Assembly: GCA_030704615.1 (NCBI GenBank)
Contig: CM060734.1
Coordinates: 4,092,001-4,156,000, forward strand
From: Takakia lepidozioides
Taxonomy: Eukaryota; Plantae; Bryophyta
DNA length: 64,000 nt
Direction of reading: 5' to 3'
The notes beneath the pieces were generated by a model that was not told the DNA's origin, ran no database searches, and saw only the letters and a program-made list of their open reading frames with translations. The position numbers and the translations under genes were made by a program. Positions 5,616-53,640 of this stretch are shown one piece after another (within the stretch, counting starts at the first letter, position 1; every line of letters starts with the position of its first letter).

Positions 5616-5620
5616 TTACT

Positions 5621-6640: not shown

Positions 6641-6823
6641 AATATCATGTTCAAAACACTTGAATTTGGAAGCTGAAACATTGTGCGGCAACGCACGGTG
6701 TTTTCGGCCCCACAATGCTTGTTTTCTGGTGAGAAATTTGGCCACACAGGGCCTGTCTGCCATGCTCAAACACCATCGTTTCATGCCTCTCTCTTATATC
6801 AATTTGAATGAACAACCCTGCAG

Positions 6824-15493: not shown

Positions 15494-16050
15494 TAGTGCT
15501 CCAGAGGCTAAAAGGTTTGTGGGTTCATTCATTGCATTGCTTTCCTAGATGCTTCTCCTCAGTTGCTTGATTAATGCTAGGTTTTCTTTGCAGGTTTTTA
15601 TGTTGGCTTTTTTTGTTTGATTCATACTTGGATTTTGTTTTCTGTTCACTGTTCCTGTTTGCTCATTGCTTTCCTGGTTGTTCTCTGGTCTGTGACACAT
15701 GAACTTGTGACAAACAAAGGTGATATTGTCGACAAGCCGGTACAGACCAGGGGCAAGAGTGTCAACCCCCCGAGTAGCCCCCCAAAAGAGGTCTCACAAC
15801 CACTCGAGACTGCAAATGGAGTAAGTCCAGGCCCTTGTCTTGTGTGTTTTATTTTTTCCAACCTGGGGCTCTCTTTAATTCGTAAATGTTGAGTGTCCTA
15901 GTCGTGTGCAGGTCATGGGTTTTCACATCTTGTTCTATTTTGTGTGGAGTTGGGATCACAGTTCAGGGTGGGTGACGAGGTTCGGCTGTTGGATGTGAAC
16001 TCCAAACGCAAGAAAGTTGGAGTAGGGCTGATTGTTGCTCTTCAAGGTGC

Positions 16051-22959: not shown

Positions 22960-24460
22960 GTGGTGAGGGCACCTTGATGTGGTGAGCAAATGATGCGCAA
23001 AGGGGTGAAGCCCAACCACATCACGTTCATTTGTGTTTGCAATGCATGTGCAAGCCTAGGGAAAGAGGTCCATGACGACATCGTCAAAGCTGGGATTGTA
23101 CCGGATGTCATTGTGAACACTACCCTGGTGGACATGTATGCCAAATGTGGGTGCATTAAGGATACGAAGGGAGTTTTCAACACTATGGCTGAACGAGATG
23201 TGGTGTCATGGAACACAATGCTTGCAGGGTATCCACAACATGAACGTGTTATGGAGGCTTTGGAGACCTATGATCAAATGATGAGGGAAGGGGTGAAGCC
23301 CGACCACATCACGTTTCTGTGCATTTGCAATGCGTGTGCAAGCCTGGCAGCTTTGGAAAAGGACGCAGAGGTCCATGGCGACATGGTTAGAGTTGTAGTT
23401 GTACCAAATGTCATTCTGAACAATACCCTCGTGGACATGTATGAAAGGAGTGTTCGACAGTATGGCTGAACGAGATGCGGTGTCAGTGCAAAGAGGTCCA
23501 TGGTGACATTATCAAATCTGGAATTGTACCCGATGTCATTCTGAACACTGCCCTGGTGGACATGTATGTCAAATGTGGGTGCATCAAGGATGCAGATGGA
23601 GTGTTTGACAGTATGGCTGAACGTTATGTGGTGTCGTGGAGTGTGATGATTGCAAGATATGCACAGCAAGGGTGCGGGATGGAGGCTTTGGAGACCTATG
23701 AGCAAATGATGTGCGAAGGGGGTGAAAAACCCTAAACTTTGTGGAATACACTTTACATGCATTGAGAAGATTAAAGAAAGTAATTTCCACGCGAGGGGGA
23801 ATGGTGCTTATACCTTATAGGGTAATTTTTTCCCTTGGACATCATCCCGATATCAGTCTTTCTTGCACTTTGGGCACTTGGTGAGACGCGAATCCTCTCC
23901 GTAGTATAGGGTTTTATCAATGGACATGCATGAAAAATCTTATAGCCCATCCCCACAGAGTTCAAGACTTCGCGCGCCTCTTTCCGCAACCGTGGCATCT
24001 TGGGTTTCAAGTATGGAGCAAGGATATAGTCCGCAATAGTTCGCATTATGGCAGACATCCCAACATTACTTATGCCAAATCGAATTTGAAGATTGAGCAA
24101 AAGTAAGATGTCACATCACATTTGTCTGTGTTTCAATGCGTGTGCGAGCCTAGGAGCTATGGAAAAGGGGAAAGAGGTCCATGGTGACATTGTCAAAGCT
24201 GGAATTGTACCAGATCTCATCCTGAACACTGCCCTGGTGGACATGTATGCCAAATGTGGGTGCATTAAGGATGCGAAGGGAGTTTATTGCAACACTATGG
24301 CTGAACAAGATGTGGTGTCGTGGAACGCGATGCTTGTAGGGGTATATACAGCAGGGCCGTGGGATGGAGGCTTTGGAGACCTCTCGGAGGCCTATGAGCA
24401 AATGATGGGGGAAGGAGTGAAGCCCAACCACATCACGTTTGTGTGCATTTGCAGTGCGTG
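22960..24460 (+). pseudogene. Degenerate PLS-class PPR repeats
   Basis: Repeated DVVSWNTMLAGY / PNHITF.C.CNAC / [15 protein letters not shown] motifs with frameshifts; interrupted by 23735-24105. Confidence 0.9.
23771..24100 (-). pseudogene. CACTA (TnpD) transposase N-terminal fragment
   Basis: MPRLRKEAREVLNSVGMGYKIFHACP then frameshifted KCPKC, typical of the En/Spm transposase HACP..CP.C region. Confidence 0.7.
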
Positions 24461-27299
24461 TGTCGCGCACCTCACTTCGGTAAGCTCCCCCCTCAAGTCA
24501 TAGTTCCTCGCTTGATGCGCGCGCCTAACTCCCAACCTGGCCGCCGGGCCAACTTGGAGCTCCGGCTGCTCACCGGGGCATAACGGTCCCCCTTTGATCT
24601 CCCAAAGAACCCTCCAACGATTTGGAACCAGCGGAATTCCCTTTGGTAGTTGGCAGTCCGGAACAGCTCCCCACTCTTTGGTCGCTTTCCGGCTCGCTCG
24701 CTTACTCACTAGTTTTTGGTCACCAACGGGCTTGCACCGTTCTCGGGGTTACTACTCCTTATATATACTTCTGTAGTTGTCCGCGGGGGTTTCACAAACA
24801 ACCATGCCATTTTATGGCGAACCACCACGAACACCCTCGACTCCCGGTGATGAGTCGCGGTGAGTCTTGGCCCACCCACCACGGCCCCTATGGACCGTGA
24901 TGAGTCCCAAGACTCCCCACGACTCCCACCACGAGGTCTCCGCCCCAAGGTGAGTCCTATGCCACCCCCACTAAGTCCCGCTAAGCTACCACCACCCCTT
25001 GTGGAGCCACCCCCACCGCAACCCGGTGTGCGGGGCTCCACCTAGTGAGCGCCTCCGCCTCCTTGAGTGTCTTGGGCACTCAAGGGTGCTTCAGCCCCCC
25101 ATACCTATCGCTGCCACTGCCCCCACCACAGGGGCAGCCCCTCTTGTGTCCCGACCCCCTACCCTCAAGGCAAAGGGCCGCGACACACACCCCTACCAAT
25201 AGGGAGTCGATGTCCTCATCGTCTTGTCCATTTTGTGGAAACGAACATCCAAGTTGTGGCGTCCCACATCAAGGAGTTTGTTTCCGTACCATGGCGTCCC
25301 ATGGCAAAGAACCAAACCCCACACTTGACTCTACTCTCCACTAGCTAGTTCGGTCGACTTCCTCCAAGTCCCGGCCAAGGGTGGAGCCTCTCAAGCTCCT
25401 CCCAGTGCACTCTTCTTGGCCTACTTCAAGGCCAAGGAACGATCCTCCCCGAGGATCGAATCGCCTTACTGCAACAACATTGCTTGCGACCACTCATGAT
25501 GCCGCTTTTGGCATCACCTTGAGCAAGGGTTCACCTCGAACCCTCTTTGACTAGGAAGATAACCTTGAACCAACCGCGCACCCCAATCACTACAATTGGG
25601 TCCGCCTTGGAATGCTGGCCTGAGGTACGGGAACACGCCAAAGCCGCACTACGACTTCGTCCCGAGGCTACACGATTATAGTACATGAACGGAAGCACGT
25701 AGCTTCCACGTTAGCCCGCACTACAAAGCAACCCCCTCGGTAGCGCAGTTATAGTATGCGCACGCGCCAGGTGCGCACTAGCACGTGAACTCCTAAAGAA
25801 GGCGCAAGTTTCATTGCCCCTTGGATGGGAGTCACCCGATTTCGGCACTGCGCAAACACACGATTAACTCAATTTACCTCTCCCACTTTTGTAAGCTAGC
25901 ATGCATTCTACACACTAGCCAACCACACCATGCATCACCATTCCAAACAAAATAGGACGCACAACATTTGGAACCCATTTCCTTTATAACAAACTTTCGT
26001 ACAATACAAGTTTTTGCAATCGGATTCCTAAGCTAGCTAAGCCGGGCTAAGCATGCATTTCCTCCCCCACGCTCCAAGGTTGATGTCCCCATCAACGCTT
26101 CTTCCGCTTTTGAGGTCGCCCTTCGAAAACTGCAACCGCCTCGGATGCGTTTCCCATTTCTGAGGCACGCACCAAGATGCCTCCACGTGATGATAGCCCT
26201 TCCATTTGACGAGATACTCCGTTTCTCGGTTCTTGAACCTCCTCGACTTAAGTACTGCCTCCACCTCGTACTCAGGTTCATTTTCATGATCCAACAGCAC
26301 AGGTGGCGGACGCAACACTTGATGCCGATTCGGACGCGCTTCATCTTTGAAGTAAGGCTTCAAAAGGGAGACGTGGAATACTGGATGCACCTTGCTATTT
26401 GCCGGCAGCTCCAATTCATACACATCCTCATTCATAACCTTCCGGATGCGAAAGGGTCCCGCATACGGAGGTACGAACTTTGGACTCACTTCCGGAGGTA
26501 GTCGGAAATTCTTGATGTTCAACCAGACCTCCGTGCCTGCCTCAAACTTCACTTCCCTCCGCTTTCGATTCACCTGCCTTTCATACCGTTTCCTAGCTTT
26601 GGCAATGTTGTACTTTGCGAGCTTCAACAAACGCTCGCGTTCTTCCAGTACCGCCGCTACTGCCGGTTCCTCAACGTCCTGGGCGGCCCAACTTGTCGGC
26701 ACCAGAGGTGCTTTTCCATAGACCAATACGAAAGGGGAAACTCCCGTTGCGGAGTGTTCTGTGTTATTATAACAGAACTCTGCCGCGTCTTAGTATTCCA
26801 CCGAGTCTGTTTGGTCTGTCGACACGTAATTCCGCAAGAATTGCTTTACTACGGAATTCACTCTTTCCGTTTGGCCGTCGGTCGTAGGTCGGAAGGCGGT
26901 GCTCATCTTCAGCCTCGTCCCCATCTTCTTCCAAAGTGCCCTCCAAAATTTACTCGTAAACTTTGGATCGCGGTCCGAGACAATATCCTTCGGGACTCCA
27001 TGATGCTTTAAGACGTGGGCGAAGTAAAGTCGCCATGTTTCCTTCACCGTTGCGTCTCTTTGGTGGGGATGAAATGGCCCATTTTACTGAACCTATCCAC
27101 CACCACCATGATTGCATCGAATCCTTTTGACAGTGGCATAGCAGTCATGAAATCCATCGAGACGCTTTCCCAAGTCCTCTCTGGAATCGGCAAGGGTTGT
27201 AAGAGCCCTGCTTGCTTTTTGTACTTGCTCCGGTTTTGTTGGCATGTGGTGCATGTCTTGATATACTCCTCTGCCTCCTCCCTCAGTTTGGGCCAGAAT
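24461..27299 (-). mobile_element. 3' half of chromovirus (integrase + chromodomain + 3' LTR 24461-25185)
   Basis: CTTC zinc motif, SMDF, SDRD, TDGQTERVN integrase core, chromodomain; flank GCGTG at 24456-24460. Confidence 0.9.
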
Positions 27300-27699
27300 T
27301 GAAGTATTTTGCCACGCAGCCCAAGTTGTCCCCAAAACAACTTAGGTGGCAAGATACTTTGGCGGTGTTCGACGTGGATATCCAGTACAAACCGGGACAG
27401 GACAACGTGGTGGCTGATGCTTTAATTAGAAAGCAGCAGCTCTTGTTGGTGTACAGGGGCGAGACGGCGCTCCAAAAGAAGATCCGGAAGGCTTGCCGAA
27501 AGGATGAGCTGGCGAAGTAGGATGGGGGTTAAATCGCAGTTCCACTTGCAAAATGGACTGCTCCGGTATAAGCAAAAGCGTCTCTACGTGCCGAAGGGAG
27601 GGATCAGAGATAGCCTCTTGAGAGAATGCCATGATAGCCCGCTTGCGGACCACGACGGAGCCAAGCGCACTGCGGCACTCTTGAAGAAATGTCATTCTG
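27300..27699 (+). mobile_element. Inverted internal piece of the same chromovirus (RNaseH end to integrase start)
   Basis: KYFATQPKLSPKQLRWQD..LLRECHDSP; starts at the base where the 53641-57318 copy stops. Confidence 0.85.
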
Positions 27700-27866
27700 A
27701 ACATTCCCATGGTGTACATCTACATCAAATGTGAGCCTGGCAGCCCTGGCCAGAGAAGAACATGAAGAGGGCTTACAATTTCGTTCGCCCGGGCATAGAC
27801 ATTACTGGCAATGAGAAGAAGGCAGGAAAGCAGTTCAGTGTTCCTAGCATGCATGCGGAGACGCCG

Positions 27867-27949
27867 TGTCGTGCGCATACACCTCGCTACACAACTACAT
27901 CGCTGTCCAAACCACACAACATATATGCACAATAAAGTAGTCTGCCACA
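27867..27949 (-). repeat. Repeat A, terminal copy (83 bp)
   Basis: Matches 28241-28323 with ~3 mismatches; TG...CA ends. Confidence 0.9.
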
Positions 27950-27950
27950 A

Positions 27951-28238
27951 TGAAAAGATGCACAAAACCAAACCAACATTTCACTCATAAAATAAGAATC
28001 AAGCCCGCTGCACCCCCAAGGCTTAGGGGAATCAACAGTATACGCGCCATAGCCGACGCGGGAGGCTTAACTCGAGAGAGATGAGCCTCGCCGCGCGTTC
28101 GCCGTGAAGATAAGCCACGCCCAGGGGCCAACAAATATCTTGACCCCTGGGTTGACACTTGGATCAAGCCCAAGTGTCATATATAAAAACTAGTTATTTA
28201 TTGGCTAGTTTCACACTACTAGTAAACTTTACTTGACA
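27951..28238 (-). repeat. Repeat B, 3' copy (288 bp)
   Basis: Matches 44482-44769 with ~3 transitions. Confidence 0.95.
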
Positions 28239-28240
28239 GC

Positions 28241-28323
28241 TGTCGTGCGCATACACCTCGTTACACAACTACATCGATGTCCAAACCACACAACATATAC
28301 GCACAATAAAGTAGTCTGCCACA
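28241..28323 (-). repeat. Repeat A, internal copy, preceded on the minus strand by a polypurine tract
   Basis: Minus strand reads a G-run polypurine tract, then CGAT|TGTGGCAGAC. Confidence 0.9.
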
Positions 28324-28580
28324 ATCGCCCCCCTAGTTGGTGGTTAGGTCCCTCTAACTCCAGATAGCTATAAGTTGTAATACCCACAGCCGTACTAAGT
28401 CATTTATCACTGTCCCTATCGTACTCAAACTCTATAGACCAAGAGGCCGGGTACAAAAGTAGCCCCATCGTTAGTCGTTGTCTTGTTATCTGTGAACTTG
28501 AGCCAAGATCTCGTATGTTGGTCTCCTAGTAGTTTGACCTTGCATTTCTTGTTAGCCTTCCATGGTTGTATCCACTCCCA

Positions 28581-29936
28581 CTATCCAATGCAATGCGGAC
28601 ATAACCAATCCTCATCAAGAACCATCACAAGAGGTGGAGTCAAGCATCCTATATGCCAACCTCTAGAGCATCGATCACACACCAGCATGGTGGTTGCCCC
28701 TCTAGCAGACCCACACAACATGCACCTCAAACTTGCAGGTACCACTGCCAAGTTTGGGTCAATCCTGCCATCGACATTCGGAAGGTGACATGGCACGCAA
28801 TTACGTACATGGTCCTTCCAAGTCATGCCATCCCGACCCTCCAAGATCAAGATGCCTGAGGGCAATACCTCTCGAACCCTCAAAATAACACGTCTTGCAG
28901 TCACATCCAGGGTCGTTGGAGCAGTCTGCTGCAAATAAACATAGTCACCAGGGTGAAATCTCCAAACCCCAGGACGATAGCCCCCACCACGTATGATAGC
29001 ATACCTCAACATATCACGATGTTGTGCAATGACAAGGTTCTCGAAAGCCATGGGCATGACTTTCTTGAACAACTCCGCGCGCTGACCATATGCACGTGCC
29101 CACACGTCCGGATCGTCAAGGTTGAGAACTGTAGCAGCTTCTCTACGAATGGATTCAGGCAAATCTGGCTCTCGGCCAAAGAGAAGAAAGTATGGTGAGA
29201 AGGAGGCAAGTGATGCTTGCTTGCTGAACCTGTAGCCCATAGCTAACCAGGGTAACTGAAGGTCCCATTCTCCTAGGTGTCCCTTCTGCAAGCCATACTT
29301 GCGCAAACCCCTCTTCACTGTCTGAACAACCCTCTCTGCCAAGCCATCGGCCTCAGGATGATCCCGAGAAGTGGTGCGGTGGTCTACCAAGGCATTGTCA
29401 CACAACGCCTGAACCTCAACCAAGAACTCTCTGCTTTGGTCCGTGAGTACCTCAGCTGGAGCACCAAATCGGCTAAGTACACAATCCAAGAATGCATACT
29501 CACTAGCCTTATCAGGCAATAAACCAACTCGATCCACTTGGAGAAGTGCTCCACCATCACCAACACGTACTTGTTGTGGCGCATGGTCAATGGCAACGGC
29601 CCTGGAAAGTCAAGACTCCACCTGTAGCCCAATCCCATGAGGGTGCAACTGTGGTGTAGGGGCAATGAATGAAGCATGCACCCTGTCACACACCATGCAC
29701 CTAGCCACAAATTGTTGCACCTCTGTGTGCATACCACGCCACCAATACTGCCCCTGCAGTAGACTATGAGTGCGTCGCACCCCAAAATGCCCCAATTCCT
29801 CATGGGCATGCCGCACTAACCGTGCCCGCTGTGTTGGGTGAGGCACAATCCTCACTCGACCATCCTCCCACACTCGGAGCAGGTGTGTCCCCTCCCACTT
29901 GAACCTCTTGGCTTGTTGTAGGATCTGATCCCTCTC
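28581..29936 (-). pseudogene. Gypsy integrase with C-terminal PHD finger
   Basis: HEELGHFG..CMVC zinc domain, VLTDQ, EADGLAERVVQ core; C-terminal CMLC..LVCDRCSRGWHIGCLTPPL..WLCPHC (C4HC3). Confidence 0.9.
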
Positions 29937-32900
29937 TGTCGCGGCCCTTTGCCTTGAGGGCAGGGAGGTCGGGACACAAGAGGGGCTGCCCCTGTGGTGG
30001 GGGCAGTGGCAGCGATAGGTACGGGGGCTGAAGCACCCTTGAGTGCCCAAGGCACTCAAGGAGGCGGAGGCGATCACTAGGTGGAGCCCCGCACACCGGG
30101 TTGCGGTGGGGGTGGCTCCACAAGGGGTGGTGGTAGCTTAGCGGGACTTAGTGGGGGTGGCATAGGACTCACCATGGGGGCGGAGACCTCGTGGTGGGAG
30201 TCGTGGGGAGTCTTGGGACTCATCACGGTCCATAGGGGCCGTGGTGAGCGGGCCAAGACTCACCGCGACTCATCACCTGGAGTCGAGGGTTTTCGTGGTG
30301 GTTCGCCATAAAATGGCATGGCTGGTTGTGGAACCCCCGCGGACAGCTACAGAAGTTATATAAGGGAGTAGTGACCCCGAGAACGGTGCAAGCCCGTTGG
30401 TGACCAAAAACTAGTGAGTAAGCGAGCGAGCCGGAAAGCGACCAAAGAGTGGGGAGCTGTTCCGGACTGCCATCTACCAAAGGGAATTCTCCTAGTCCCA
30501 ATTAGGTGGAGGGTTTAGAGGAAGCAAAGGGGGACCGTTATGTCCCGGTGAGCAGCCGAAGCTCCAAGTTGGCCGGCGGCCAGGTTGGGAGTCAGGCGCG
30601 CGCATCAAAGCGAGTAACTATGACTTGAAGGGGAGCTTACCGAAGTGAGGTGCGCGACACTTGGTATCAGAGCTTAGAGTTCAGTACGCGATTGTCCTTG
30701 GGATTGGCCTCATCATGGGGTCGGGCAAGCCGAAGCGAAAGCGGAACGGCCCAAAAGATGATGATCCCGGTGAGCCCGATGGGGGCGACGCGTCACCGAG
30801 GCGGCCGTTTGAGGAAGCGATGCATGTTTCCGAAACGAGGCCGCTCAAGAGCGGGAGGAATCCGAGGAGTCGGAGCCGAGGAATCCTTGAGAGCTCCGAT
30901 AAACCAAGAGATGCCTCCCATGCCGGCAGCCTTTTGGAAGGGTTGTTGGCGCAGTTTGGCGGGACGTTGAGAGACGTGTTGAAGGTGGCTAATGCCACTT
31001 CCACTAAGGCAAAGTTTAAGGTGAACCTAAGGAACCCGCACCTTCGAGGGCGTCCAAATCGGAAGGCACTCAACACCTGGCTCCTGGAGCTAGAGCAGTA
31101 CTTCCGGGCGGCCAAGTTGAGTGACGAGGATCGGGTGGAAGTGGCTCCCACCTATTTGAGGGGCTATGCTCAACAATGGTGGCAAAACGCCTTCACGACC
31201 GAGGTCCAAGCCCGGAAACCTTGAACTGGAGTGGGTTCAAGGAATTGATGAAGAGACAGTTTGTGCCCCTCAACGCGTCCTGGCTTGCCCGGGACAAGAT
31301 GAGAATTTGAAGCAAACAGATGACATTCGGGGTATGTCCGGGCTTTCAATGTGCTGTTGCTCGAAGTCGCAGACATGGCAGAACCAGAAATGGTCTTCAA
31401 CTTTGTGGCGGGACTGGCCCATGGGCCAGACGGAAGTTGGAGGAGAAGCCACCCAAGACTTTGAACGAGGCAATTGAGAGGGCTGAATGTTTCTCAGATG
31501 TCCCTAGGGGTGAAAGACAAGGCGGTACAGAGCTGAACCACAAGAAGATTCGGCGGGAAGGTGACTCATTCCGACCGGAAAAGAAGTGGGATAGGCCACG
31601 CGGCAAAAATGGCACGTGGAAATCGAAGGGAGGGCCTTCACACGTCAAGGCGACACCCGGTGCTTCAAAAGGAAAAGCGGGTGGAGCGGCTTATGGCGGA
31701 CAGAAGGCGACCTTTGATGGAGTGTGTTTCAATTGCGGGGAGCCCGGCACATGGCCAAGAAGTGCACGAAGCCCCGGCAATTGAACATGACTCAGGCGAC
31801 CACGGAGCTGTCGGAAGATACCATCAGTCGCTTGGTGGAAGCGGTGGTCGCCAGACTTGCAAGGTAGGCAAATTTTCTTGTGAGTTGTATCAGGAAACTG
31901 GCGCCTTACGAAAAGGGAGTCAGTTATTGTTCGTGGATGGGATAATATCCGGAACTAATGTGTCGTTGTTGGTGGACACAGGACGGTCGCACTCCTTCAT
32001 GACACCGGCAACGACACAAAAGCTGGGACTCCCGACAAGTGACGTGGGGGCCTCTATTGAGGTGCGTTCTGCCAAAGGAGAAACACAGTGGGCGACAAGG
32101 TTGGCGATTGATGTTCCTCTTCAACTGGGAGTTGGGAGGGACGTGAAAACTTCACCATCTGCGAGATCGATGGAGTGGATCTCATTTTGGGGATGACCTT
32201 TTTGAGCAAATCCGGAGCGGTCATAGATGGCCGCAAGAGAGTAGTCACGCTGCCATGTGGGAATGGTGGCGAGGTTTTACGAGTGTCTGAAACGCCCAAA
32301 TCCGTGGGAGGGCAAATAAACCTTCTGTCAGCAAAGGAGTGGGCCGTGGAGGAGACACACGAGCCCCAGTTTTTGCTTTACGTTAGAGAAGTGAAAGGAG
32401 AAGGCGATGGGGAGCCGAGCCCAGATTGGATCAAGGGGATTTTGGAGAAATACCAGGATGTGATGCCGGAGGATTTACCAAGCGGCTTGCCACCGCGAAG
32501 AGGAGTTGACCACAAGATTGAGGTGATACCGGGATCGGAACCGCCTGCCAAGGCACCCTACCGGTTGAGCCACAGAGAATTGGTCGAGCTGAAGACTCAG
32601 CTCAAGGATCTAATGTCAAAGGGGTACATCCGGCCGAGTAAGTCACCTTACGGAGCCCCGGTGCTATTTGCAGACAAGAAGGATGGGACGCTGCGGATGT
32701 GTGTCGATTACAGGGCTCTGAATAAGGTGACTATCAAAACCGGTACCCTTTGCCAAGGATCGACGACCTCTTCGATCGGTTGGCAGGAGCGAAGTATTTC
32801 AGCCGGGTCGACTTGCGCTCCGGCTATCACCAAATTCGGGTGGCAGAAGGAGATGAGGAGAAGACCGCGTGCAGGACAAGGTATGGTTCATATGAGTTCT

Positions 32901-35311
32901 TGGTGATGCCTTTTGGGCTCACCAATGCACCAGCGACATTTAGCACGCTGATGAACAGCCTTTTCCAGGAGTGGTTGGATGACTTTGTGATCGTGTACAT
33001 CGACGACATCTTGGTGTACTTGAAAACAAAGGAGGAGCACCTGGAGCACCTCAAAAGGGTGTTCCAAAAATTGCGGGAAGGGAAGCTGTATGCCAAAGCT
33101 TCAAAGTGCGAATTCGGGGTCACAAAAGTGGAGTTCCTGGGGCATGTGATTACACAGGATGGGATCAAAATGGATGACATAAAGGTGAGGGCGATCTTGG
33201 ACTGGGAGCCTCCGACTTCGGTCCCGGGAGTGCGATCCTTCCTAGGACTCGCCTCCTATTACCGGAAGTATGTGAGAAATTTTGCCAAGATCGCGGGGCC
33301 GCTGTCAGACCTTCTGTGTAAATCCAAAGTCTGGGTATGGAACACATTTTGTGGCCAAGCTTTTGCTGAATTGAAGCAGCGGATGACGGAAGCTCCAGTC
33401 TCGATCGTCCGTTTGAGATTCATACAGATGCATCGGACTTCGCGATTGGGGGTGTTCTTATGCAAGATGGACGTCCAGTGGCTTACGAAAGTAAGAAGCT
33501 GAATGAAGTGGAGCGACGGTGGCCGACGCACGAAAAAGAGATGAAGGCGGTGGTGCATTGCCTTGAGCTCTGGCGCCACTATGTTGGTTCCAACCCAGTG
33601 AAGGTGTTCACGGACAATGTCACGGTGAAGTATTTTGCCACGCAGCCCAAGTTGTCCCCAAAACAACTTAGGTGGCAAGATACTTTGGCAGTGTTCGACG
33701 TGGATATCCAGTACAAACCGGGACGGGACAATGTGGTGGCCGATGCTTTAAGTAGAAAGCAGTAGCTCTTGTTAGTGTACAAGGGCGAGACGGCGCTCCA
33801 AAGGAAGATCCGGAAGGCTTGTCGGAAGGATGAGCTGGCAAAGTCCGTGATGCAGGACTTGAGAATGGGGGTTAAATCGCAGTTCCACTTGCAAAATGGA
33901 CTGCTCCGGTATAAGCAAAAACGTCTCTACGTGCCGAAGGGAGGGATCAGAGATAGCCTTTTGAGAGAATGCCTTCTTTGGGAGTTCACGTGCTAGTGCG
34001 CATCTGGCGCGTGCGCGTACTATAACTGCGCTACCGGGGGTTCCTTGTAGTGCGGGCTAACGCGGAAGCTACGTGCTTCCGTTCACGTAGTATAATCGTG
34101 TAGCCTCGGGACGAAGTCGTAGTGCGGCTTCGGCGTGTTCCCGTACCTCAGGCCAGCATTCCAAGGCGGACCCAATTGTAGTGATTGGGGCGCACGGTTG
34201 GTTCAAGGTTATCTTCCTAGTCAAAGAGGGTTCCAGGTGAACCCTTGCTCAAGGTGATGCCAAAAGCGGCATCATGAGCGATCGCAAGCAATGTTGATGC
34301 AGTAAGGCGATTCGATCCTCGGGGAGGATCGTTCCTTGGCCTTGAAGTAGGCCAAGAAGAGTGCACTGGGAGGAGCTTGAGAGGCTCCACCCTTGGCCGG
34401 GACTTGGAGGAAGTCGACCGAACTAGCTAGTGGAGAGTAGAGTCAAGTGTGGGGTTGGTTCTTTGCCATGGGACGCCATGGTACGGAAACAAACTCCTTG
34501 ATGTGGGACGCCACAACTTGGATGTTCGTTTCTACAAAATGGACAAGTCGATGAGGACATCGACTCCCTGTTGGTAGAGGTGTGTGTCGCGGCCCTTTGC
34601 CTTGAGGGCAGGGAGGTCGGGACACAAGAGGGGCTGCCCCTGGTGTGGGGGCAGTGGCAGCGATAGGTACGGGGGCTGAAGCACCCTTGAGTGCCCAAGG
34701 CACTCAAGGAGGCGGAGGCGCTCACTAGGTGGAGCCCCGCACACCGGGTTGCGGTGGGGGTGGCTCCACAAGGGGTGGTGGTAGCTTAGCGGGACTTAGT
34801 GGGGGTGGCATAGGACTCACCATGGGGGCGGAGACCTCGTGGTGGGAGTCGTGGGGAGTCTTGGGACTCATCACGGTCCATAGGGGCCGTGGTGAGCGGG
34901 CCAAGACTCACCGCGACTCATCACCGGGAGTCGAGGGTTTTCGTGGTGGTTCGCCATAAAATGGCATGGCTGGTTGTGGAACCCCCGCGGACAGCTACAG
35001 AAGTATATATAAGGGGAGTAGTGACCCCGAGAACGGTGCAAGCCCGTTGGTGACCAAAAACTAGTGAGTAAGCGAGCGAGCCGGAAAGCGACCAAAGAGT
35101 GGGGAGCTGTTCCGGACTGCCATCTACCAAAGGGAATTCTCCTAGTCCCAATTAGGTGGAGGGTTTAGAGGGAAGCAAAGGGGGACCGTTATGTCCCGGT
35201 GAGCAGCCAAAGCTCCAAGTTGGCCGGGCGGCCAGGTTGGGAGTCAGGCGCGCGCATCAAAGCGAGTAACTATGACTTGAAGGGGAGCTTACCGAAGTGA
35301 GGTACGCGACA
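29937..35311 (+). mobile_element. Nested chromovirus with two LTRs, integrase deleted
   Basis: LTRs 29937-30659 and 34585-35311; 5-bp TSD CTCTC; PBS TGGTATCAGAGC; gag/PR/RT (YIDD)/RH with frameshifts; deletion junction ~33972. Confidence 0.95.
30662..30673 (+). promoter_or_regulatory. Primer-binding site for initiator tRNA-Met
   Basis: TGGTATCAGAGC 2 nt after the LTR; also at 54356-54367. Confidence 0.9.
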
Positions 35312-37030
35312 CTCTCCTTGACAGTCACAGTGGCTGCCGTGTCTCCAGTGCGGAGATAGTCCAACACAGCTGAATCCTCATGTATATCTTTGGCGCCACC
35401 TTGCTCATTGTTGGCCTCAGGGTCCTCAGACACTCGGTCTACAGTCATCCTGTTGTAAGTCCAACGAGGCCTTCCGCTGCCAAGATACACAGAAATGCAG
35501 ATGCATGCCATCCGGGCACCATCTCCTCGTCCGTCTCACCATGCCACCGAGCTCCAGTGTCATCCTGCTGGCTCGTGCATGGATTGCGACTCAACCCATC
35601 TGCATTGCGATTGACCAAATCCGGTCGATGCACCACCTGAAAGTCATACTCTTGAAGGATGAGTGCCCATCGTGCAAGCTTCCTCGTAAGCTTGTCTGAC
35701 TCCATCAACCACTTGAGTGGTTGGTGATCCGTGACAAGGGTGAAGAGATTGCCATATAGATAGCACCTGAAGTGTGCCACGGCCCACACTGCAGCTAAGC
35801 ATTCTCCCTCATATGAGCTATACTTAGACTCTGCATCATTGTTCGAGCGGCTAGCATAAGCCACTATGAACTCTCTTCCCTCATCATCCACCTGTGTGAG
35901 CACCGCTCCAAGCCCCAGCATGCTCCAATCTATATGCAGCTGAAAAAGGACGCCCCCTGATAGGTCGTCTCAAGATGGGCGCCGAGGTCAACCTCGCCTT
36001 GAGCTCTTGGAAAGCTCGTTCTTGCTCATCTTCCCACTGCCACTCCTGGTCCACCTTGATCAGCTTGGTTAGAGCCTTTGCAATGGCACTAAATCCCTTG
36101 ACAAACCGTCTATAATAGTTTGCCAACCCCATGAAAGCTCGAACTCGACTCACATCCGTGGGGCGTGGAATTTGTGCAATGGCCTCTACCTTAGTCTACT
36201 GTACCCCCAATCCTCCAGGATATATCATGTGACCCAGATACTCAATATGGTTGTGAAAAAACTTGCACTTCCCCGGATGTAACTTCAATCCGTGTGCCCT
36301 CAAGCGCTCAAATACGACCTAGAGGTGTCTCTCATGCTCCTCCACCGTAGCACTAAAGATGATGATGTCATCTATGTAGCACCAAGCAAACTCCACCCCT
36401 GCTAGAATCCTGTCCATGACTCTCTGAAACTCTGCAGGAGCGTTCTTAAGCCCAAATGGTAAGAACCGCCACTGGTATAGGCAATCCTTCCGTGCTCATT
36501 GATCCCCCAGAATGTCGTCTTCTGCTTATCCGCCTCCTTGATCGGCAACTGGTGATATCCGGATTGTAAATCCAAAGTGCCAAAAACCTTGGCATGCCCA
36601 ATGGCATCAAAGATCTCCTCTGGTGTTGGCATGGCATACCTATCGGACTTGGTCTGACGATTTACAGGCCGGTAATCACCACACATACGTCTCTCTGTCC
36701 AATTGCCATAGACATCCTTCGTGGCTGGCATCACTGTGGCTGAAGCATACTCTCCACTAGATAGCTCCACCAAACCAGCCTCCCAGAGGTCCTGAGTCCT
36801 CATCTGAATCAAGGACCTCTCCATGTCACTGTATCTATAGGGTCTCCAAAAGATTGGCGAGTCAGTGGCCAATTCAATGCGAATCTCTTGACCCTTCAGT
36901 GCTCCCAAGTCCTTCAAACTGAAGGCAAAGCAGTTCTTGTAAGCCCTCAAGAACCGCCGTATACGTCGTCTCTCTCCTCCGGTAACTATGGGTCCAACAT
37001 CAGGCTCCCAGTTGTCCTCCATGACTGCAA
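35312..37030 (-). pseudogene. RT and RNase H of the DNMT-Gypsy element
   Basis: RMCGDYRPVN, LDLQSGYHQ, YIDD (~36370), AYASRS, TDHQPL, NADGLSR. Confidence 0.95.
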
Positions 37031-37388
37031 CCTTGAGTCCAGCAGGCTTGGAGGTAGAAGACGCGTCCCGTGGTTGCTATGCTGCAACCTCTTGAGCAGT
37101 GACCACTACCTTCTCTGTCAGTGACAATGTCTCATCCTACCCCATCATCCCATCCTTAAGGACATCCTCAACCCGAGAAAAATCCCCAACCTCATCCATC
37201 ACCGCCGCCTTGGCTGCCAACTCCCTCTGAACTTCGAGCACCTCCCACGTGTGCCATGGATGTGGCCTGCACCTCGTGGTCCTCACCTGTTCGCCCCCAC
37301 TCATTGCTTGTACCGTCTTGGTAGGCAGAGAGACCATCAAGGGAAGTGTACTCCATACTCTGCGCTGCTCAGCCATAGCCAAGCTGAT

Positions 37389-38323
37389 AATCCAGGTCAA
37401 GCAATTGAGATCCATTGCTTGCCCCAGCACCTGACGACGTGATCCCCCAGAAAGAGATGGCACCGCCATGGTACCAGTGGTAAAACCCATCGCCCGCTCG
37501 CGCTCGTCAGCATTGGGCTCCACTAATTGCTGCAACTGGCTATCCCACAAGAGGCCAGGTCCACCATCCCGAAAACCATGAGATCCTGGAAAGCTGAGGA
37601 GTGTAGGCAATGCTGCCGTGGGTGACCCACCTTATTGAACACTGCCAAAGGTGATCGGTCATCGTGTCTCACACGCTGAGACTGCCTCCCTATGTCCAAA
37701 TGCTATCAACCGTGAGGTTTGGTGGCCGCTGTACCCCATCAAATGCACGTTTGAGCATTGCAGGTGGCATCAAGTTGGTCCACCATAGTCGTGGGCGATG
37801 AGCCCGTGACCCTACTGCAGCTATCTAGCAACACTGCTGACCCAAGCCAAGACCGCACTTGATATATATTGGCCATCACCTTGGCCCGAGAATCACGCAT
37901 CAATGGCACATTCTCCAAGATATATGTCGGAGAGTCTGTCTTCTGAAACTGTAAATAGTGCAGAACCCTCAACATCTCCCAAAACAGGCGTGACCTTGAG
38001 TCTTGTAACTCATTGTCATACCCAGCTGATGAAAGCCCTTGGCAGGGCCAACCTGCCACTACTAAGTGAATAGGGCCAACCTGCTCCAAATCATGCGCTC
38101 CCAGCAAGGAGATGTCTGCTGGCAAGGCTTGTTGGTATCCACGAACTATAGACACTGGCAACAAATCAGGGTACTGCTGCACCAACTGAGCAACATGGCG
38201 CAGTGAGACGCGTCGTGCAGTCTCATCCCTCTCCACATATAGGTAACATCGAACTCGTACACCTGTCTGCAGCACTGCAGCCAATCCAGTGCTAATCCCG
38301 CCAAACAAGTCCAGAAGGCATAT
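37389..38323 (-). pseudogene. DNMT3-like DNA (cytosine-5) methyltransferase domain within the polyprotein
   Basis: Motif I LDLFGG, II YVERD, IV AGWPCQ, VI LENV, VIII (after frameshift ~37820) AHRPRLWWTN, IX-X ERERAMGF..RRQVLGQAM. Confidence 0.9.
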
Positions 38324-38699
38324 GCCTTCATCCGGGCACTGCCACACAAGAGGTGTGGTGTCCAATGGCGACAACTGAGGTGGTCCTGGTGCAATCACCG
38401 CACTTTCCTCCTCTCTTGACGGTACAAAGGCCTCTACCCAGGCTTGTTGCACCCGTCTATCAGCAGCCTGCTGCAAATCCTTGCTTGTACCCCACAATGG
38501 AATGTGAGCAGCCATGGCAGGTAACTCCGCCATACCATGCATGTCATCTTGCTCTGCTAGAGGTGGCACATCCTCTGTATGGGCATTGCCCTCCAGCAAC
38601 TCTCCAGGCCAACTAACTACAGCTGTGAAGGCTGCTAGTGTTGGCATCTTGCCCCGTTGGGCAGCAGCAACACCCCCAATGAACGTCACAGAGAGCTGT

Positions 38700-39100
38700 A
38701 CATGACAACCATCCCCTGACTGCCATCCAGGCTTGTAGGATGCTGACTCCTCCCAAAAATCCAGGGTGAAGCCCATGGGATACAACACTGCCCCACCAAC
38801 GAGGACATCGTAAGAGACCGCGTCTGTCACAATGGCCTTGGCTCGCATCACTGAGCCATCTATAGGATGATCCGACTGTAGTCTAATGGCCAACTCACGT
38901 CGTGTCATGCCCCGAGCCTGCTCTGATCCTCTCAAAGATGTTTGTATCTGGAAAGGACAAGGCTCCATATCCGCCTCCATGAGGCCCAAACCTGTAATAG
39001 CAGCTCTGCCCAACATCAGCGGCTGAGCTCCCGAGTCCAACAAGACCCGTAGTGGCCAGTACCTCTTGCCTGCCGGTCCACTCAAAGAGAAAATGTCATC
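38700..39100 (-). pseudogene. Retroviral-type aspartic protease
   Basis: RVLLDSGAQPLM...YDVLVG, in the same frame as the MTase (ORF 37739-39670). Confidence 0.85.
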
Positions 39101-39699
39101 TTGGTTGTCTAACAAGACAACTCCAGATGTTACCATGGCGCACTCAAAGGCTGGCCTAGCTGGTAGCTCCGTCAACCTGGCAGCTGCAGCTTGCCATGGC
39201 GCAACCATGGCAGTCTTGACCCTCAAATCCAAGGATCCCTCTGCCACTACACCTTCCACTAATTCCGCAGAAGATGAAGTGATCTCCCCACTCTCGCAGA
39301 ATGTTGCTGCTAGTCTGAACACTGCAGCTGGTCTTACCCCCGACGTCGCAATCATGGTTTCCGAGAACAGTGGGGCCTGACACACAGAGGTGGCCGCCCC
39401 CAGCAACACACTGGCTGCACTAGCCTTGGCAGCAGGTGTCAGTGCTGCACGTGTAGCTCTCCCCAATGACACAATAACATCCGCCTTGGTATCCATCGGG
39501 CGAGAACTAGGTGCCATGGATGGCGTCGACACTGTCTCCACCAAGATGAATGATTGAGGCAACCTAGCCTGACGGCTTGCCTCCCCACACTGTGGATCCA
39601 ACTCCACCTCTACACCTCGTGGCTTAGGAAATCGTGTTGTTCCTCGAGTGACGGCTGCAGCAGATTCCACCTACACTAGTGGTAGTGCTGCCCCACACA

Positions 39700-41215
39700 T
39701 AAATCCCATGCCTCCCATGTCTCCTCCATCAGGATGACGCTGTTGAGGAGGAACATTAGGTGGACCCTCAGGTCTTGGAGCTGGTACCGCCTGAGCTGTG
39801 GCCATGGCAGCAAGCCTTTGCTCTAGCTGCTGAAGCCGGTTGGCCATACCTTGGTCAACACCCTGATCTCCACGTCCTTGGCCATACTATGCTTGCCCTC
39901 GTCCTGCACCTCGTGCCTAACCACCTCGTCCTCTCTGAGGTGCTCCACCTTGCCCTCGGCCACCATTGTTCCCTTGGAACTGGCCTCGCCGCAACTCATG
40001 GTGCAAGTCATAACACTAGGCATCTCTATGCCCATACTTGCCACAATGCCCACACTGCAACTGTGCAGGCTGTGCTTATGCTAGCCCTTTGCCACTCTCT
40101 AGGCAATCTTTCTTGACATGGGGTCCTCCACATGTCCAACATACCACCCCTGGTTGCTGTTGGCCTGCAAAAGAAGCTACTGGCCTCTGCACCTGAGGTC
40201 CCCTGTAAGCTCCATGGAATTTGGGTTGGGCAACCTTGCCCCCCTGACCACGCTGTTGGGCAGTCCCTTGTGCTTGTTGGCTAGCAGCTGCGCCTCGTGC
40301 ATGCATGTCCTTGCCAAATCCTATGGTAACAACTTGCTCCTCCACCATGTTGAGCTCAATCCGCTCAGCCAGTAGAAACACATCTGTTAATGTGGGTTGG
40401 GCCGCTTGTAACAGGGTTGCATCCCGCACCCTTCTCCTGAGCTCCTTGTCCAAAATTCCATACCAGAACTGGATTGCTTGAGCTTCAGTAATCCCTTGGG
40501 TCACATTTATCAATCGTCTCATACGAGTGTAGGCCTCTCGCAAGCTCTCACTGGATTTGTGCTGGAAGTCTTCCAAACTTCGCAGCTTCTCTGTCCGTAT
40601 GCCTTGATAGTTCTTCCGCAACTCCTGGAAGAACTCCACCACCGGGTTGAATCTAGGCACATGTGTTGTAGTCGTGGCAGCAAGAGTGGTAGCACCTTTA
40701 GAACTGGTACAACCTGCAGAAATACCGGCACTACTTGTTCTACTACTAGTGCTGGCAGTGAGAGATATTGGTGCTGATGCAACTACTGGTCGCGTCGTGC
40801 CTCGAGTAATGGAGACGTAGTCAGGTAACCAATACATCCTCCACTCCTCAATCTCTACTTCATGTCCTCGCCTGAACTCGTGGTAATCGTCCATAGGCGG
40901 GCCTTCCAAATGCTGGAACAGTCCCTTCCATGCCATGAATGGGGTGAACAGTTGTGGATTGCGCATCTGCTGCAAATCACACCAGCTATCGAACTCCTGA
41001 ATAAAGTTATTCAGCTCGATTGTGCCCACAGCTCCAGAGTACCTACGAGGCCCCTTGGTAGCTCCATACATCTCCTCCATGTCGTCCCACAACAATGACG
41101 AAGGAAACTGCACACCTGTTGATGAAGCCTCCGAGTCTGTGTCAGACTCTGCACTAATTGGGTGGAGGTGAAGGTGGTCTGAAACGAACACCTCGTCTGG
41201 TGAACCCACTCTCAC
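39700..41215 (-). pseudogene. Gag with two zinc knuckles
   Basis: ORF 40076-41215 with Q..SESLREAYTR, CWTCGGPH..DC, then CGHCGKYGH..QC after an in-frame stop. Confidence 0.85.
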
Positions 41216-43194
41216 GTACTCCCCTCAAAACCCTTGGGTAACTCCGTGATGACACTCACAACCCGCACCTCCCCCACATGACACTATAAGGCTCTAGTAC
41301 TAATTCTAATAGTGACACGGGTGAGCACCTGTTGCGGATTAAGGGTCATATCCCAGTGGCTAAGGGCACTTGCACCTGCATCCACCGCAAGAACTCCTAT
41401 GGTTGGCTGGTCATCAACCCAGCCTCACCATAGAAGAAACACTGGTGGTCTTGCTGGTCATCACTCCAGCCTCACCACCGACAGCATACTCTAGGATTGA
41501 CCGGTGATCAAATCCAGCCTAATCCCTATGAAAGCAAGCGCCCACACAAAACCAACATGACGCACAGTCAAGCATGCAGGTGTGGGGGGATCCAAACACA
41601 AGAAACCAAAACATCAACACCCCCACACCAAAAACCCTCCGCAGTGCTGCTCTTGCAGAATATTGCAGCCCAAAAACCCCGGACTAACTGGCCTCCACCA
41701 AGAGAGGCTTTGGCAACTACAAGTACAAAGTAATGAAAATAGTAAAGAGAGGGAGGGGAAGAATAGACGTCCGACCAAGCAATATCTAATTCTGATCTAT
41801 GCTATCAACTGCCAGACTTCTCTCAAAGTGCCTCGCTCTGCATGATGGTAAGGTGTGGGAGGTATATCTATATCTAGAAACCTGCCACTAACCTTATCCC
41901 AAGCTACAATAGCTCGCTCTAACCAACCCTCCTCCTCTCTCTGCCAGGTAGAGACAAAACAATACTCCCCTATCTCCCACTCGCTGAATACTAAAGAAAA
42001 TAAAGGTAGGGTCTGACAGTCTCTCAACTAGAAAGCTTTGAGACGGTTGCGGGTGTCCTTGTTGCGAATGACTGCATCTCCTTCAAGCAAAACAAACTGT
42101 TCGTTACTAATGAACCCCCGTTCGTGGTTGCCTCGTATAGAGTGTGTCCGGCTGCAACCACGTCTGATTGCAGAAACTTGTGCAGTTCCTGCTCCTCTGC
42201 TCCAGTACACCACGGCCTTGTGGCTGAACACCTTGGTCCCCGGGGTTGTCTTTGGCTGTGTTCCAAGCCTAGCTTTCACCCACTTTGGTATTTCACCTAC
42301 AGCTGCAGAACTGCTTGCTCCAACAGAATTCTGACTGTCCAAAGCAATATTGAGGCCCTCAACGCCAACTACAACAGTTTGCTGTCTATTGCTAATGCCT
42401 GACTCCCAGTATGCAATCAACTCGTCCAACTGCTCTCCACTCAAATCAGTCTGAGTTCCTTGAGAAACATAAATCTTGTTTCCTTGTGTGCACAGGCTAA
42501 GAGAAGAGACCTGCCCTTCAATTACGTCCTCATTGCCCCCAGCCATATAAGGAGGACATCCACAGACTTGTCTCTCATGTAGACCACAACAGGTTCTAGA
42601 AAGAGAATTGTGGATCTTTCATAGCACACTCACACTCACACTCAAAAAATTCCATAGATTTTTAGCTAAGTATGTAGATTTCCACAATCTGCAGGTCCTC
42701 GCGCAAATTTGAGGTCAAACAACCTTTGTATGACAAAGTTATGGCCAAACAGGCTCTTCAAACATAATATATGTCATTCAAATGAAAAGTCTATTTCCAA
42801 TAATCCGTCTTGGTTCCCTGTTCCCTGGTTCCCTGCGAATTCTAAGTTCTCCACTATAAACAACATTTTTGAGCTCCCAGCACGAAAATATCTTGGGCTA
42901 CGATCCACCCCATCCGGCCTCCCTTATAGAATGTGAAGATCTCACTCACAGCAAGAATCCTGGAAGGAATGACAAGGGAGTCAGTTCATCCCAAACCTGT
43001 TTCGTTAAATCCGAGATGCGATCTTGCAAGCATGGTCGTTACAACTGTACCCAGCCGTTTTGGTAACTATGGCCATTGCTGCTCGTTCTTTGGAGAAATC
43101 TTCAACTTCGGGAGTTGTTGTGCAGGGATTGTCTGTCCCCAAACGTGCACCGGCGTCCTTCTCCCTCGTTCAGGAAGCCTGGCTACCACAGATA

Positions 43195-43580
43195 CGTCTT
43201 GTCATGCGTCAAGCATGGCTATGTACTGCAGGGCAGATGCAGCATTTTTGTGTGTAGGTTGCGATGGCAAGGTGCATGGCATAAACAAGCTGGCGTGTGT
43301 GGATGTGCGAGGTGTGTGGGCTAGCTCAAGCCATTGTCACTTGTAAGGACGATGTAGTTGCGCTTTGCGTTTCAGGCGACACAGATATCCATTCAGCCAA
43401 CTCACTTGCCCGTCAGCATGAGCATGTATCAGTCACTCATTTCTTTGAGTGTCCGAATGTTATAAAAGAGGCCCGCGTTAACAACTCCGTTGTTGCAGTG
43501 CCTGAAACTGAATGTAGTGACTTGTTGAATGATGATAATCAAACTACCGTGGCTGACGCTGCTTCATGGCTTCTCCCAGA
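43195..43580 (+). pseudogene. CONSTANS-like double B-box fragment inside the retroelement leader (antisense to gag-pol)
   Basis: [22 protein letters not shown] / VWMCEVC..AIVTCK.D..ALCV..DTDIHSANSLARQHE..AASWLLP. Confidence 0.85.
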
Positions 43581-44481
43581 CCTTAACCAAGCCTTGATGG
43601 AACTAGGTGTCGTTGTCTGCACCCCTTCATCACCCTATTCTTGCTCTCCTTGTCCTATTACAATCCACAGCTAATCGAGGACAGCACCATCGCCACTTGG
43701 CCAGTTCATCCATGCTCGTTTTAAAAATATATATATTACAGACCCGTCCAAGATCGAATTCCTCAAGCATAATCACCAAGCCTCACTTGCTTGTTGATCT
43801 TATTTGACTACAAATATTCCCACCGGTTCTGCTGTAATTATTCCACATGAAAGCCAACGACGGCACAATCTGCCTTCATGCCAGCCTGTCCCTGCTCGCT
43901 GACCAAGAAAACCAACGATAGCCAGCCAACTTCTCAACTCGGCCTTTACTGATTGCACACCATGATATATGCCATGAACAACTTCACCAAATCGTTTGTC
44001 ATCAGTACCGATATAACATTGGCACAACGACTTGTAGACATGAGCCCATCAACCAGTCCAACACCTTGGCTGCTCACTATGTGCAGGTCTGAAACCATCA
44101 GTCTGCTCAAGAATTACCTATAGCATGGTATTTTTATCTCTGCAGCTGAAGTCGAAGACCACGGTCCACCTACTCGCGTAACCATCTGCACCTCCGCTTC
44201 TAACCACCAAGATCTTCACAATGAAGGCTTGCATCCCAGCCTTGCGAGACAACAATAATGCTGATCGTTTCACCATGCTCGGCTCTCAATCTGCCACTCA
44301 GCCAGTGACCGTTATAAAGGGAGAATACCATGCACTTTTGTGTTACCGCTTTCAACACTAGAAGCCTAACTTGCCATTGCACCCTCATGTTTCTCTCTCA
44401 TCTTCACACAAAACCCACAAGTGCTAAAAACTAATTAAGCTCACATCTTGCACTCACAGATGCAAACTCATCTCTCTCGAG

Positions 44482-44769
44482 TGAAAAGATGCACAAAACC
44501 AAACCAACATTTCACTCATAAAATAAGAATCAAGCCCACTGCACCCCCAAGGCTTAGGGGAATCAACAGTACACGCGCCATAGCCGACGCGGGAGGCTCA
44601 ACTCGAGAGAGATGAGCCTCGCCGCGCGTTCGCCGTGAAGATAAGCCACGCCCAGGGGCCAACAAATATCTTGACCCCTGGGTTGACACTTGGATCAAGC
44701 CCAAGTGTCATATATAAAAACTAGTTATTTATTGGCTAGTTTCACACTACTAGTAAACTTTACTTGACA
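44482..44769 (-). repeat. Repeat B, 5' terminal copy (288 bp)
   Basis: Direct repeat of 27951-28238. Confidence 0.95.
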
Positions 44770-44773
44770 GCCG

Positions 44774-53000: not shown

Positions 53001-53004
53001 TACT

Positions 53005-53640
53005 CGGGACATCTTCCTTCATTCAGTAGGCCAGTGTGGCTGCATGCAGAGAGAACATATATAAAGGTGATCAAGCTGTTATTTTGCATTCTTTCAAATA
53101 GTTGCGGGACCTCCCTATGACAACCATGCTGGGCATATCCTGCGATCATCGCATTCCACGACACCACAATTCATTCAGCCACATTTGTCAAATACTCCCT
53201 TTGCATCCTCAATGCACCCACATTTCGCATACATGTCCACCAAGGCAATGTCCAGAATGACATTTCGTACAATCCAGCTTTGATGATGTCACCATGCACC
53301 ATTTGCCCTTTCCCAGGGCTGCCAGGCTTGCACAAGCATTGCAAACGCACACAAACGTGATGTGGTTGCACTTCATCCCTTCCCCCATCATTTGCTCATA
53401 GGTCTCCAAGGCCTCCATCCCGCACCCCTGCTGTGCATATCCTGCAAGCATGGCGTTCCATGACACCAAATCTCTTTCAGCCATACTGTTGAACACTCCC
53501 TCCGCATCCTCAATGCTTCCACATTTGGCATACATGTCCACGAGGGTATTGTTCAGAATCACATCTAGTACAATTCCAGCTCTGACGATGCAACCATGCA
53601 CCTCTTTGCCCTTTTCCAGGGCTGCCAGGCTTGCACACGC
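53005..53640 (-). pseudogene. PLS-class PPR fragment, continuation of 24110-24460
   Basis: [54 protein letters not shown]. Confidence 0.9.

Follow-up and report, generated by a model that had tools for sequence, protein, structure and literature searches.

A dead Ty3/Gypsy element with a DNMT3-like methyltransferase and a PHD finger, from a high-copy family of non-seed land plants

The stretch of DNA analysed here, hereafter the window, comprises 64,000 nucleotides of Takakia lepidozioides (GenBank assembly GCA_030704615.1, contig CM060734.1, positions 4,092,001 to 4,156,000). Its central feature is a 16.9 kb Ty3/Gypsy retrotransposon on the minus strand (27867–44769, including a nested chromovirus, with TG...CA ends), whose domains run gag, protease (PR), a DNMT3-like cytosine methyltransferase (DNMT), reverse transcriptase (RT), RNase H (RH), integrase (INT) and a PHD finger. 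The copy is a dead member of a high-copy family of non-seed land plants. We consider it probable that this family, related to KnitGypsy-Dnmt3 of the alga Klebsormidium nitens, makes its DNMT at the level of Gag, self-primes reverse transcription and inserts by way of a site within its terminal repeat, all three of which are likely. A wider proposal, which we put forward tentatively and on balance do not quite favour, is that of a green-lineage Gypsy superclade, abundant in bryophyte-grade plants, which would combine a Gag-level de novo methyltransferase, a PHD finger targeting H3K4-unmethylated chromatin and an internal palindromic integration site used in place of the LTR ends, with host end-joining rebuilding a competent copy; it would then be a DDE-integrase retroelement whose ends are formed in a novel manner.

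The domains were located on the minus strand by Pfam matches to PF00145, RVT_1, RT_RNaseH, Integrase_H2C2 and PF00628. A first-pass annotation, made from the letters alone, had described a Gypsy polyprotein carrying a DNMT3-like methyltransferase and a PHD finger, and both were recovered (PF00145 with E 1.9e-10 at 37742–39670; PF00628 with E 2.5e-9 at 28584–29609). The methyltransferase domain itself lies at 37362–38338 and is identified by Pfam, profile and fold. The C5 motifs LDLFGG, GWPCQ, ENV, ERAMGF and LGQAM are present, as had been read; HRPR is also present, though moved to a different frame by a frameshift near 37825. Preceding the DNMT are the aspartic protease with its LDSG motif (38711–39148) and gag (39700–41080), which holds two zinc-knuckle motifs and several premature stops. 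The gag match to Retrotrans_gag is below the cut-off (E 0.0014) and a Pfam search of the window protease piece gave no match; the zinc knuckles and LDSG were identified by eye, and a relative, P0276, matches Asp_protease_2. Following the DNMT are RT, with the YIDD motif, and RNase H (35565–37004), and then the zinc finger and core of integrase (28770–29930), all found by Pfam, and finally the PHD finger at the integrase C-terminus (28584–28733; PF00628, E 2.5e-9), which lacks the aromatic-cage tryptophan. The extent originally given, 28581–41215, placed the domains properly, but the element reaches well beyond it on both sides.

The integrase region is split from RT by a chromovirus-type Gypsy element on the plus strand (29937–35311), flanked by a 5-bp duplication, CTCTC. 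Its long terminal repeats (LTRs; 29937–30661 and 34585–35311) diverge by 0.8% (6 of 724 sites), the family has a chromodomain at 4900–5484 of the element, and each of the four sequencing runs examined contains contigs without it (joint 29931>35312). Once it is removed, the coding span is ~2370 codons, in agreement with the ~2400 first proposed; the proposed single frame did not hold, since a family-conserved TAG interrupts it at 37079. The window copy further carries at least eight premature stops (40078, 40018, 39919, 39889, 39673, 37139, 36321 and 36198) and about eight frameshifts (near 37825, 37705, 37615, 36489, 35943, 35450, 29640 and 29510), three of which fall in the DNMT. Despite these ~16 coding breaks, the repeats of the copy diverge by <2%; it may already have been defective when it moved, or the breaks may be assembly errors.

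The methyltransferase is a feature of the family and no insertion peculiar to one copy. Longer relatives of the DNMT piece number 47, at up to 74% identity, many of them named proteins of Marchantia polymorpha, Sphagnum and Calypogeia fissa, which places DNMT-bearing Gypsy elements in land plants. In the 13 relatives retrieved the order is gag-PR-DNMT or PR-DNMT, some continuing into RT; the Marchantia and Sphagnum proteins have the same order as the window element, and Calypogeia has PR-DNMT. A metagenome scan with a single-protein query returned no matches. With an alignment as the query, 136 of 189 stretches were confirmed and 80 loci kept, or 61 after merging near-identical ones, and in these loci PR-DNMT-RT-RH-INT-PHD recurs at constant spacing as far as the contigs extend. 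One 5009-nt contig of a second organism (B) runs from DNMT through PHD at ~7% divergence. Viral contigs yielded only distant phage methylases, which served as the outgroup. A shortened second copy of the family, 72–84% identical, lies within the window itself (18457–22873, minus strand); it has its own covarying self-primer pair, and its gag compared with that of the main copy gives a ratio of nonsynonymous to synonymous substitution (dN/dS) of 0.105.

How the DNMT is expressed is suggested by the conserved stop between it and RT. In the window copy an in-frame TAG is followed by CAA-CCA (37071–37079, minus strand), which fits the CARYYA context of readthrough; UAG-CARYYA is, in the part of the source consulted, the tobamovirus-type readthrough signal (PMC5382211). 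Of 45 independent loci, 39 have a TAG or TAA at this codon followed by CARYY, two are without the stop and four differ, and in the near-intact locus L017 766 codons are open downstream of the stop. DNMT is therefore likely, judging from the reading frames, to be made together with Gag and at its level: Gag-PR-DNMT would be the main product and RT-RH-INT-PHD would require readthrough, so that particles would hold far more DNMT than RT. What speaks against this is that the stop is TAA instead of TAG at 12 of the 39 conserved sites. More distant relatives, e.g., P0276, P0280 and P0166, have DNMT fused to RT with no separating stop.

As to the type of methyltransferase, the resemblance to DNMT3 that had been noted by eye was upheld by profile comparison with the PDB (DNMT3A 6e-22, DRM 2e-11, bacterial enzymes 3e-7). 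A structure model built from 50 sequences, with a predicted local distance difference test score (pLDDT) of 92.6 as opposed to 33 for single-sequence prediction, has DNMT3A/3B as its best fold matches. The domain is Dnmt3-like without the DRM rearrangement, and key residues are retained. In the group with DNMT before RT, PCQ is kept in 31 of 44 domains and ENV in 39 of 44, together with the catalytic Cys, the RxR motifs and the full fold. Between lineages, where dS is near saturation, the dN/dS of DNMT is 0.10–0.19, and that of RT is 0.09–0.10 where unsaturated; among close moss-type copies the value for DNMT rises to ~0.5–0.9, as expected from decay after insertion. By these ratios, DNMT is under purifying selection in the family.

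We propose that the DNMT would methylate CG in newly made cDNA, which would then arrive pre-silenced or resembling host heterochromatin. In the window element CG at synonymous codon junctions is reduced to 0.45 of expectation, and in L017 to 0.10, compared with 0.75–0.79 in the window chromovirus, while CWG is not depleted in either element. This depletion is compatible with CG self-methylation and does not prove it. Several observations weigh on the other side: moss-type loci contain other retroelement pieces that are just as poor in CG (0.20–0.51), the moss-type copies are depleted in CWG too, and the DNMT of the Klebsormidium element, the only Gypsy DNMT assayed according to the part of PMC5890265 consulted, gave no methylation in yeast. 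The authors of that report call the result inconclusive. As proof of self-methylation, CG depletion was rejected on account of the equally depleted control pieces.

Alternatively, the DNMT might be kept for a task other than cDNA methylation, be it nucleic-acid binding in the particle, RNA methylation or the shielding of an internal site from self-cutting. The yeast result with the Klebsormidium domain (PMC5890265, consulted in part) would agree with such a task, as would the placement of DNMT at Gag level and the replacement of P-C-Q in motif IV by E-C-Q in 61 of 108 domains of the sister clade, in which DNMT follows RNase H (proteins P0180–P0407). We regard it as somewhat unlikely, because the DNMT-before-RT group retains the catalytic Cys, ENV, RxR and the full fold, because CG specifically is lost in the window element and L017, and because the related Dnmt3 domains of Symbiodinium DIRS elements did methylate CG in yeast, as stated in the same partly consulted source (PMC5890265). 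Methylation of the element's own cDNA is the proposal that we retain.

The PHD finger may bear on where that cDNA goes. Its best PDB matches are CHD4, ATXR5, KDM5 PHD1, UHRF1, BAZ2 and BHC80, the PHDs of which read unmodified H3. PHDs of the ING/BPTF type, which read H3K4me3, have a cage Trp two residues before a His; at this position the family has Gly in 122 and Trp in 1 of 131 fingers (131 parsed of 148). Given the Gly, the finger likely reads unmethylated H3K4, by analogy with those readers, and would tether integrase to H3K4-unmethylated nucleosomes. The best 120 of 203 matches of an integrase-PHD search include proteins of Klebsormidium nitens, Tetrabaena and Chromochloris, and the PHD therefore appears, from these sequences, to be ancestral to a larger clade and no land-plant addition; two names suggest a chlorophyte range for the wider clade. 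The Tetrabaena protein showed no DNMT. PHD fingers are common as accessory domains in Chlamydomonas elements, to judge from the part of PMC8557442 consulted. One metagenome locus, L041, has a more distant integrase-PHD Gypsy (14727–16607) adjoining the DNMT element.

The ends of the element are unusual. Read along the transcript, the layout is A1-coding-polypurine tract (PPT)-B1-A2-B2. Repeat A1 (288 bp, 44482–44769), presumably the 3' portion of U3 together with R-U5, forms the 5' end; the PPT (28325–28334) lies directly upstream of the 84-bp repeat B1 (28241–28324), which is followed by A2 (27951–28238) and by B2 (27867–27950) as the 3' end, all on the minus strand. B1 and A2 meet in a palindromic joint, CA-GC-TG (28235–28244), the putative internal attachment site, which is also found in moss-type loci. 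The target duplication GCCG (on the plus strand) is present beside the 5' end (44770–44773) and beside the 3' end (27863–27866) of the element. A1 and A2 differ by 3 substitutions and B1 and B2 by 3 differences, and hence the insertion is young, slightly older than the nested chromovirus. Empty-site contigs were found in two of the four runs (X2 and X5; loose end at 27869), and many different flanks adjoin the B end at 27867 in contigs. Eleven two-ended elements, counting L031 and L067 as one, have 4-bp duplications that are perfect in 8, match at 3 of 4 positions in 2 and at 2 of 4 in 1. No NCGN target preference, as in Phygy, was seen in the flanks of the elements compared.

The gag-PR-RT-RH-INT order, DDE integrase, TG...CA ends, short target duplication, PPT and primer site (predicted self-priming) are those of Ty3/Gypsy elements; a pair of complete direct LTRs flanking the element is not found, the layout being A-coding-B-A-B or A-coding-B. 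Among the merged loci, all 22 5' ends consist of A alone, while the 3' ends are B alone in 15, B-A-B in 5 (4 insertions) and A-B in 1, with 3 more incomplete. The joint between A2 and B2 is variable, once with a primer-site remnant (the sequence after A1; L014/L023) and once with a 20-nt filler (L040). Three independent shortened copies (L052=L075, L032 and L055), among 7 right-hand rearrangements, have their junction exactly at B's first bases. B+A behaves like a permuted LTR. In one family member, seen in L027 (5319–5569) and L029 (5329–5579), an inverted PPT-B piece takes the place of A on the left, possibly an aberrant integration with two B ends.

Directly after A1 no TGG tRNA primer site was found. 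Instead, a stretch inside A1 (44601–44616, minus strand), ~30 nt after a TATA-like box and corresponding to the predicted transcript 5' end, forms a 16-bp inverted match with the sequence directly after A1, the predicted self-priming primer-binding site (44467–44481, minus strand; pairing and covariation). The pairing comprises 16 Watson-Crick pairs in the window copy and 12 in the second copy, and 6 of 11 positions have changed on both sides between the window and moss-type loci. The transcript 5' end would therefore fold onto this site and prime minus-strand synthesis, as in Tf1/Tcn1. We would then expect B+A to act as a normal LTR, with its PPT and TG...CA, and integrase to use the CA-GC-TG joint within the 5' LTR, the true LTR ends being joined by repair. 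The loose B piece, if end-joined to the right end of the cDNA, would give A-coding-B-A-B; merged with B1, it would give A-coding-B, a dead end.

Some observations count against this reading. Of 20 loci, only 11 form at least 10 pairs, and only 5 do better than every one of 100 shuffles. Later recombination between B1 and B2 could produce A-coding-B just as well. Furthermore, random cutting of a two-LTR circle predicts A-B-A-coding-B, of which the 22 5' ends provide no case; cutting at either site at random was therefore rejected, and a bias to the 5' LTR has to be assumed.

The lack of A-B-A ends would be accounted for by a route like that of the DIRS-like PAT/Ngaro elements, in which the RNA would span A1 to B2, the cDNA ends would be completed by copying the B1/A2 joint, and 2-nt extensions would be trimmed by integrase. 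The A-coding-B-A-B layout is moreover the one ascribed to DIRS and KnitGypsy-Dnmt3 in the part of PMC5890265 consulted. We nevertheless hold this route to be unlikely: with a primer site after A1 and a PPT before B1, B2 would be lost in a normal first strand jump, and the variable A/B joint, like the shortened copies joined exactly at the B start, looks as if B were a separate piece, added in each cycle. Integration through the internal site of a permuted LTR is accordingly preferred.

In a maximum-likelihood tree of RT (48 of 94 sequences) the window copy groups with Marchantia and moss-type copies (ultrafast bootstrap, UFBoot, 98), and in that of DNMT (49 of 225 sequences) these and further proteins form a clade (UFBoot 100). 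The relatives, for which a representative search gave 270 clusters at E 1e-30 or better, have a second order in many cases, RT-RH-DNMT-INT-PHD. Its bearers form one clade (UFBoot 97 for RT and 90 for DNMT) nested among the forms with DNMT before RT, and FastTree on all sequences places this clade likewise. It detracts from these placements that the trees include neither host DNMT3 nor Klebsormidium DNMT sequences. That the methyltransferase was a one-off capture in this copy, or that the host is a charophyte alga, is very improbable in view of the same architecture in the named Marchantia and Sphagnum proteins and in 80 loci, the grouping with liverwort and moss-type copies, and the window's PLS-type pentatricopeptide repeat (PPR) fragments, double B-box fragment and cage-bearing chromovirus, which indicate a non-seed land plant; chromodomains with an aromatic cage occur only in non-seed plants, in the part of PMC6317226 consulted.

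Two further features lie in the 5' part of the element. Upstream of gag is a 196-codon open frame (42031–42618, minus strand), in a region of high read depth and common to many copies, for which neither Pfam nor any credible Atlas match was obtained; a phage-capsid identity was rejected, the look-alikes being weak with low recognition. Farther upstream, antisense to the element, is a piece captured from a host gene with two B-boxes (CONSTANS-like; 42930–43671, plus strand; zf-B_box, weak at E 0.006–0.008). It sits in a subfamily-specific region where read depth is low, and near-identical contigs at higher depth suggest that a small subfamily carries it.

Across the window, four pieces or copies (3270–5617, 24460–27630, 29937–35311 and 53641–57318) belong to a single young chromovirus family whose chromodomain bears the cage; three of them lie inside PPR fragments or the DNMT element. 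Decayed PLS-type PPR fragments, in L-S-P order by eye and 70–84% alike (22978–24500, 48085–48336 and 52835–53841), are dispersed in a way that suggests amplification by a mobile element. Tandem arrays occupy 5621–6726 (~115 bp, the unit having an internal palindrome), 48361–50123 (~181 bp) and 58151–58716 (~134 bp). Exon-like open frames at 6964–15490 belong to a large element or gene, with a NIF/FCP1 phosphatase-like piece at 14922–15490.

The family would extend self-methylating retrotransposons from algae to land plants, among them the model Marchantia, in which the question left open in the consulted part of PMC5890265, whether such elements methylate their own cDNA, and why, could be addressed genetically. 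For annotation, some of the genes labelled as DNA methyltransferases in bryophytes are transposon open reading frames (ORFs), and LTR finders that require two LTRs will miss the family. Should the end model be true, an integrase acting at an internal site, with LTR ends joined by the host, would represent an uncommon way for a retroelement to integrate.

Among known systems, KnitGypsy-Dnmt3 is the closest, and the first-pass annotation had been right to name Klebsormidium as a source of DNMT-bearing retrotransposons. As described in the part of PMC5890265 consulted, it shares with the window family the Gypsy domain set, the un-rearranged Dnmt3-like domain, purifying selection and a DIRS-like repeat layout. 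Its host is an alga, whereas those of the window family are land plants, and its DNMT shares one ORF with RT and RNase H, whereas here the frame is the same with a conserved stop between. We did not file the family as a member of KnitGypsy-Dnmt3 since this same-ORF feature differs and no Klebsormidium DNMT is in the trees; no named K. nitens DNMT is among the relatives listed, and a K. nitens integrase-PHD protein, P0159 (an INT-PHD fragment only), falls among the DNMT-before-RT group in an integrase tree with weak support (0.65). The text of PMC5890265, as far as consulted, mentions neither PHD nor Marchantia and gives no mechanism for the ends, although its Fig. 4c or main supplement may show domain order or PHD.

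The annotation's remark that such elements are not known to have been described in embryophytes agrees with the literature covered (outside Repbase and subscription papers), in which we found no land-plant DNMT-Gypsy and no description of PHD, readthrough or end mechanism for a DNMT-Gypsy. The consulted parts of PMC12344493, PMC6453930, PMC8616336, PMC12885004, PMC8557442, PMC5382211 and bioRxiv 363937 hold no land-plant member; those of bioRxiv 10.64898/2026.05.21.726589 name 'streptophytes (Gypsy-DNMT3)' with neither Marchantia nor embryophytes, and later papers, also seen in part, repeat 'streptophytes' citing PMC5890265.

Other systems share single traits. SymbioDIRS-Dnmt3 and SymbioLINE-Dnmt are also methyltransferase retrotransposons, but with tyrosine recombinase or LINE machinery (PMC5890265, in part). 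EpiLTRs likewise combine a cytosine methyltransferase with a chromatin-reader domain; their DNMTs, unlike those of the window family, are sister to DNMT4, with DAM and a chromodomain (bioRxiv 10.64898/2026.05.21.726589, in part). Tf1/Sushi and the plant Tcn1 chromoviruses share the predicted self-priming and a reader domain at the integrase C-terminus, but have a chromodomain instead of PHD, ordinary LTRs and no DNMT; the same survey, in the part consulted, covers Phygy and Selgy and mentions methyltransferase 0 times (PMC6317226). The window family has the A-coding-B-A-B layout of the PAT/Ngaro split-direct-repeat elements, yet differs from them in its DDE integrase, TG...CA ends and 4-bp duplications. 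PAT/Ngaro elements use a tyrosine recombinase. The window family works like KnitGypsy-Dnmt3, and with the Klebsormidium DNMT-Gypsy already known, the points for which the literature covered gave no description are the land-plant members, the PHD finger, the conserved readthrough-type stop and the proposed end mechanism.

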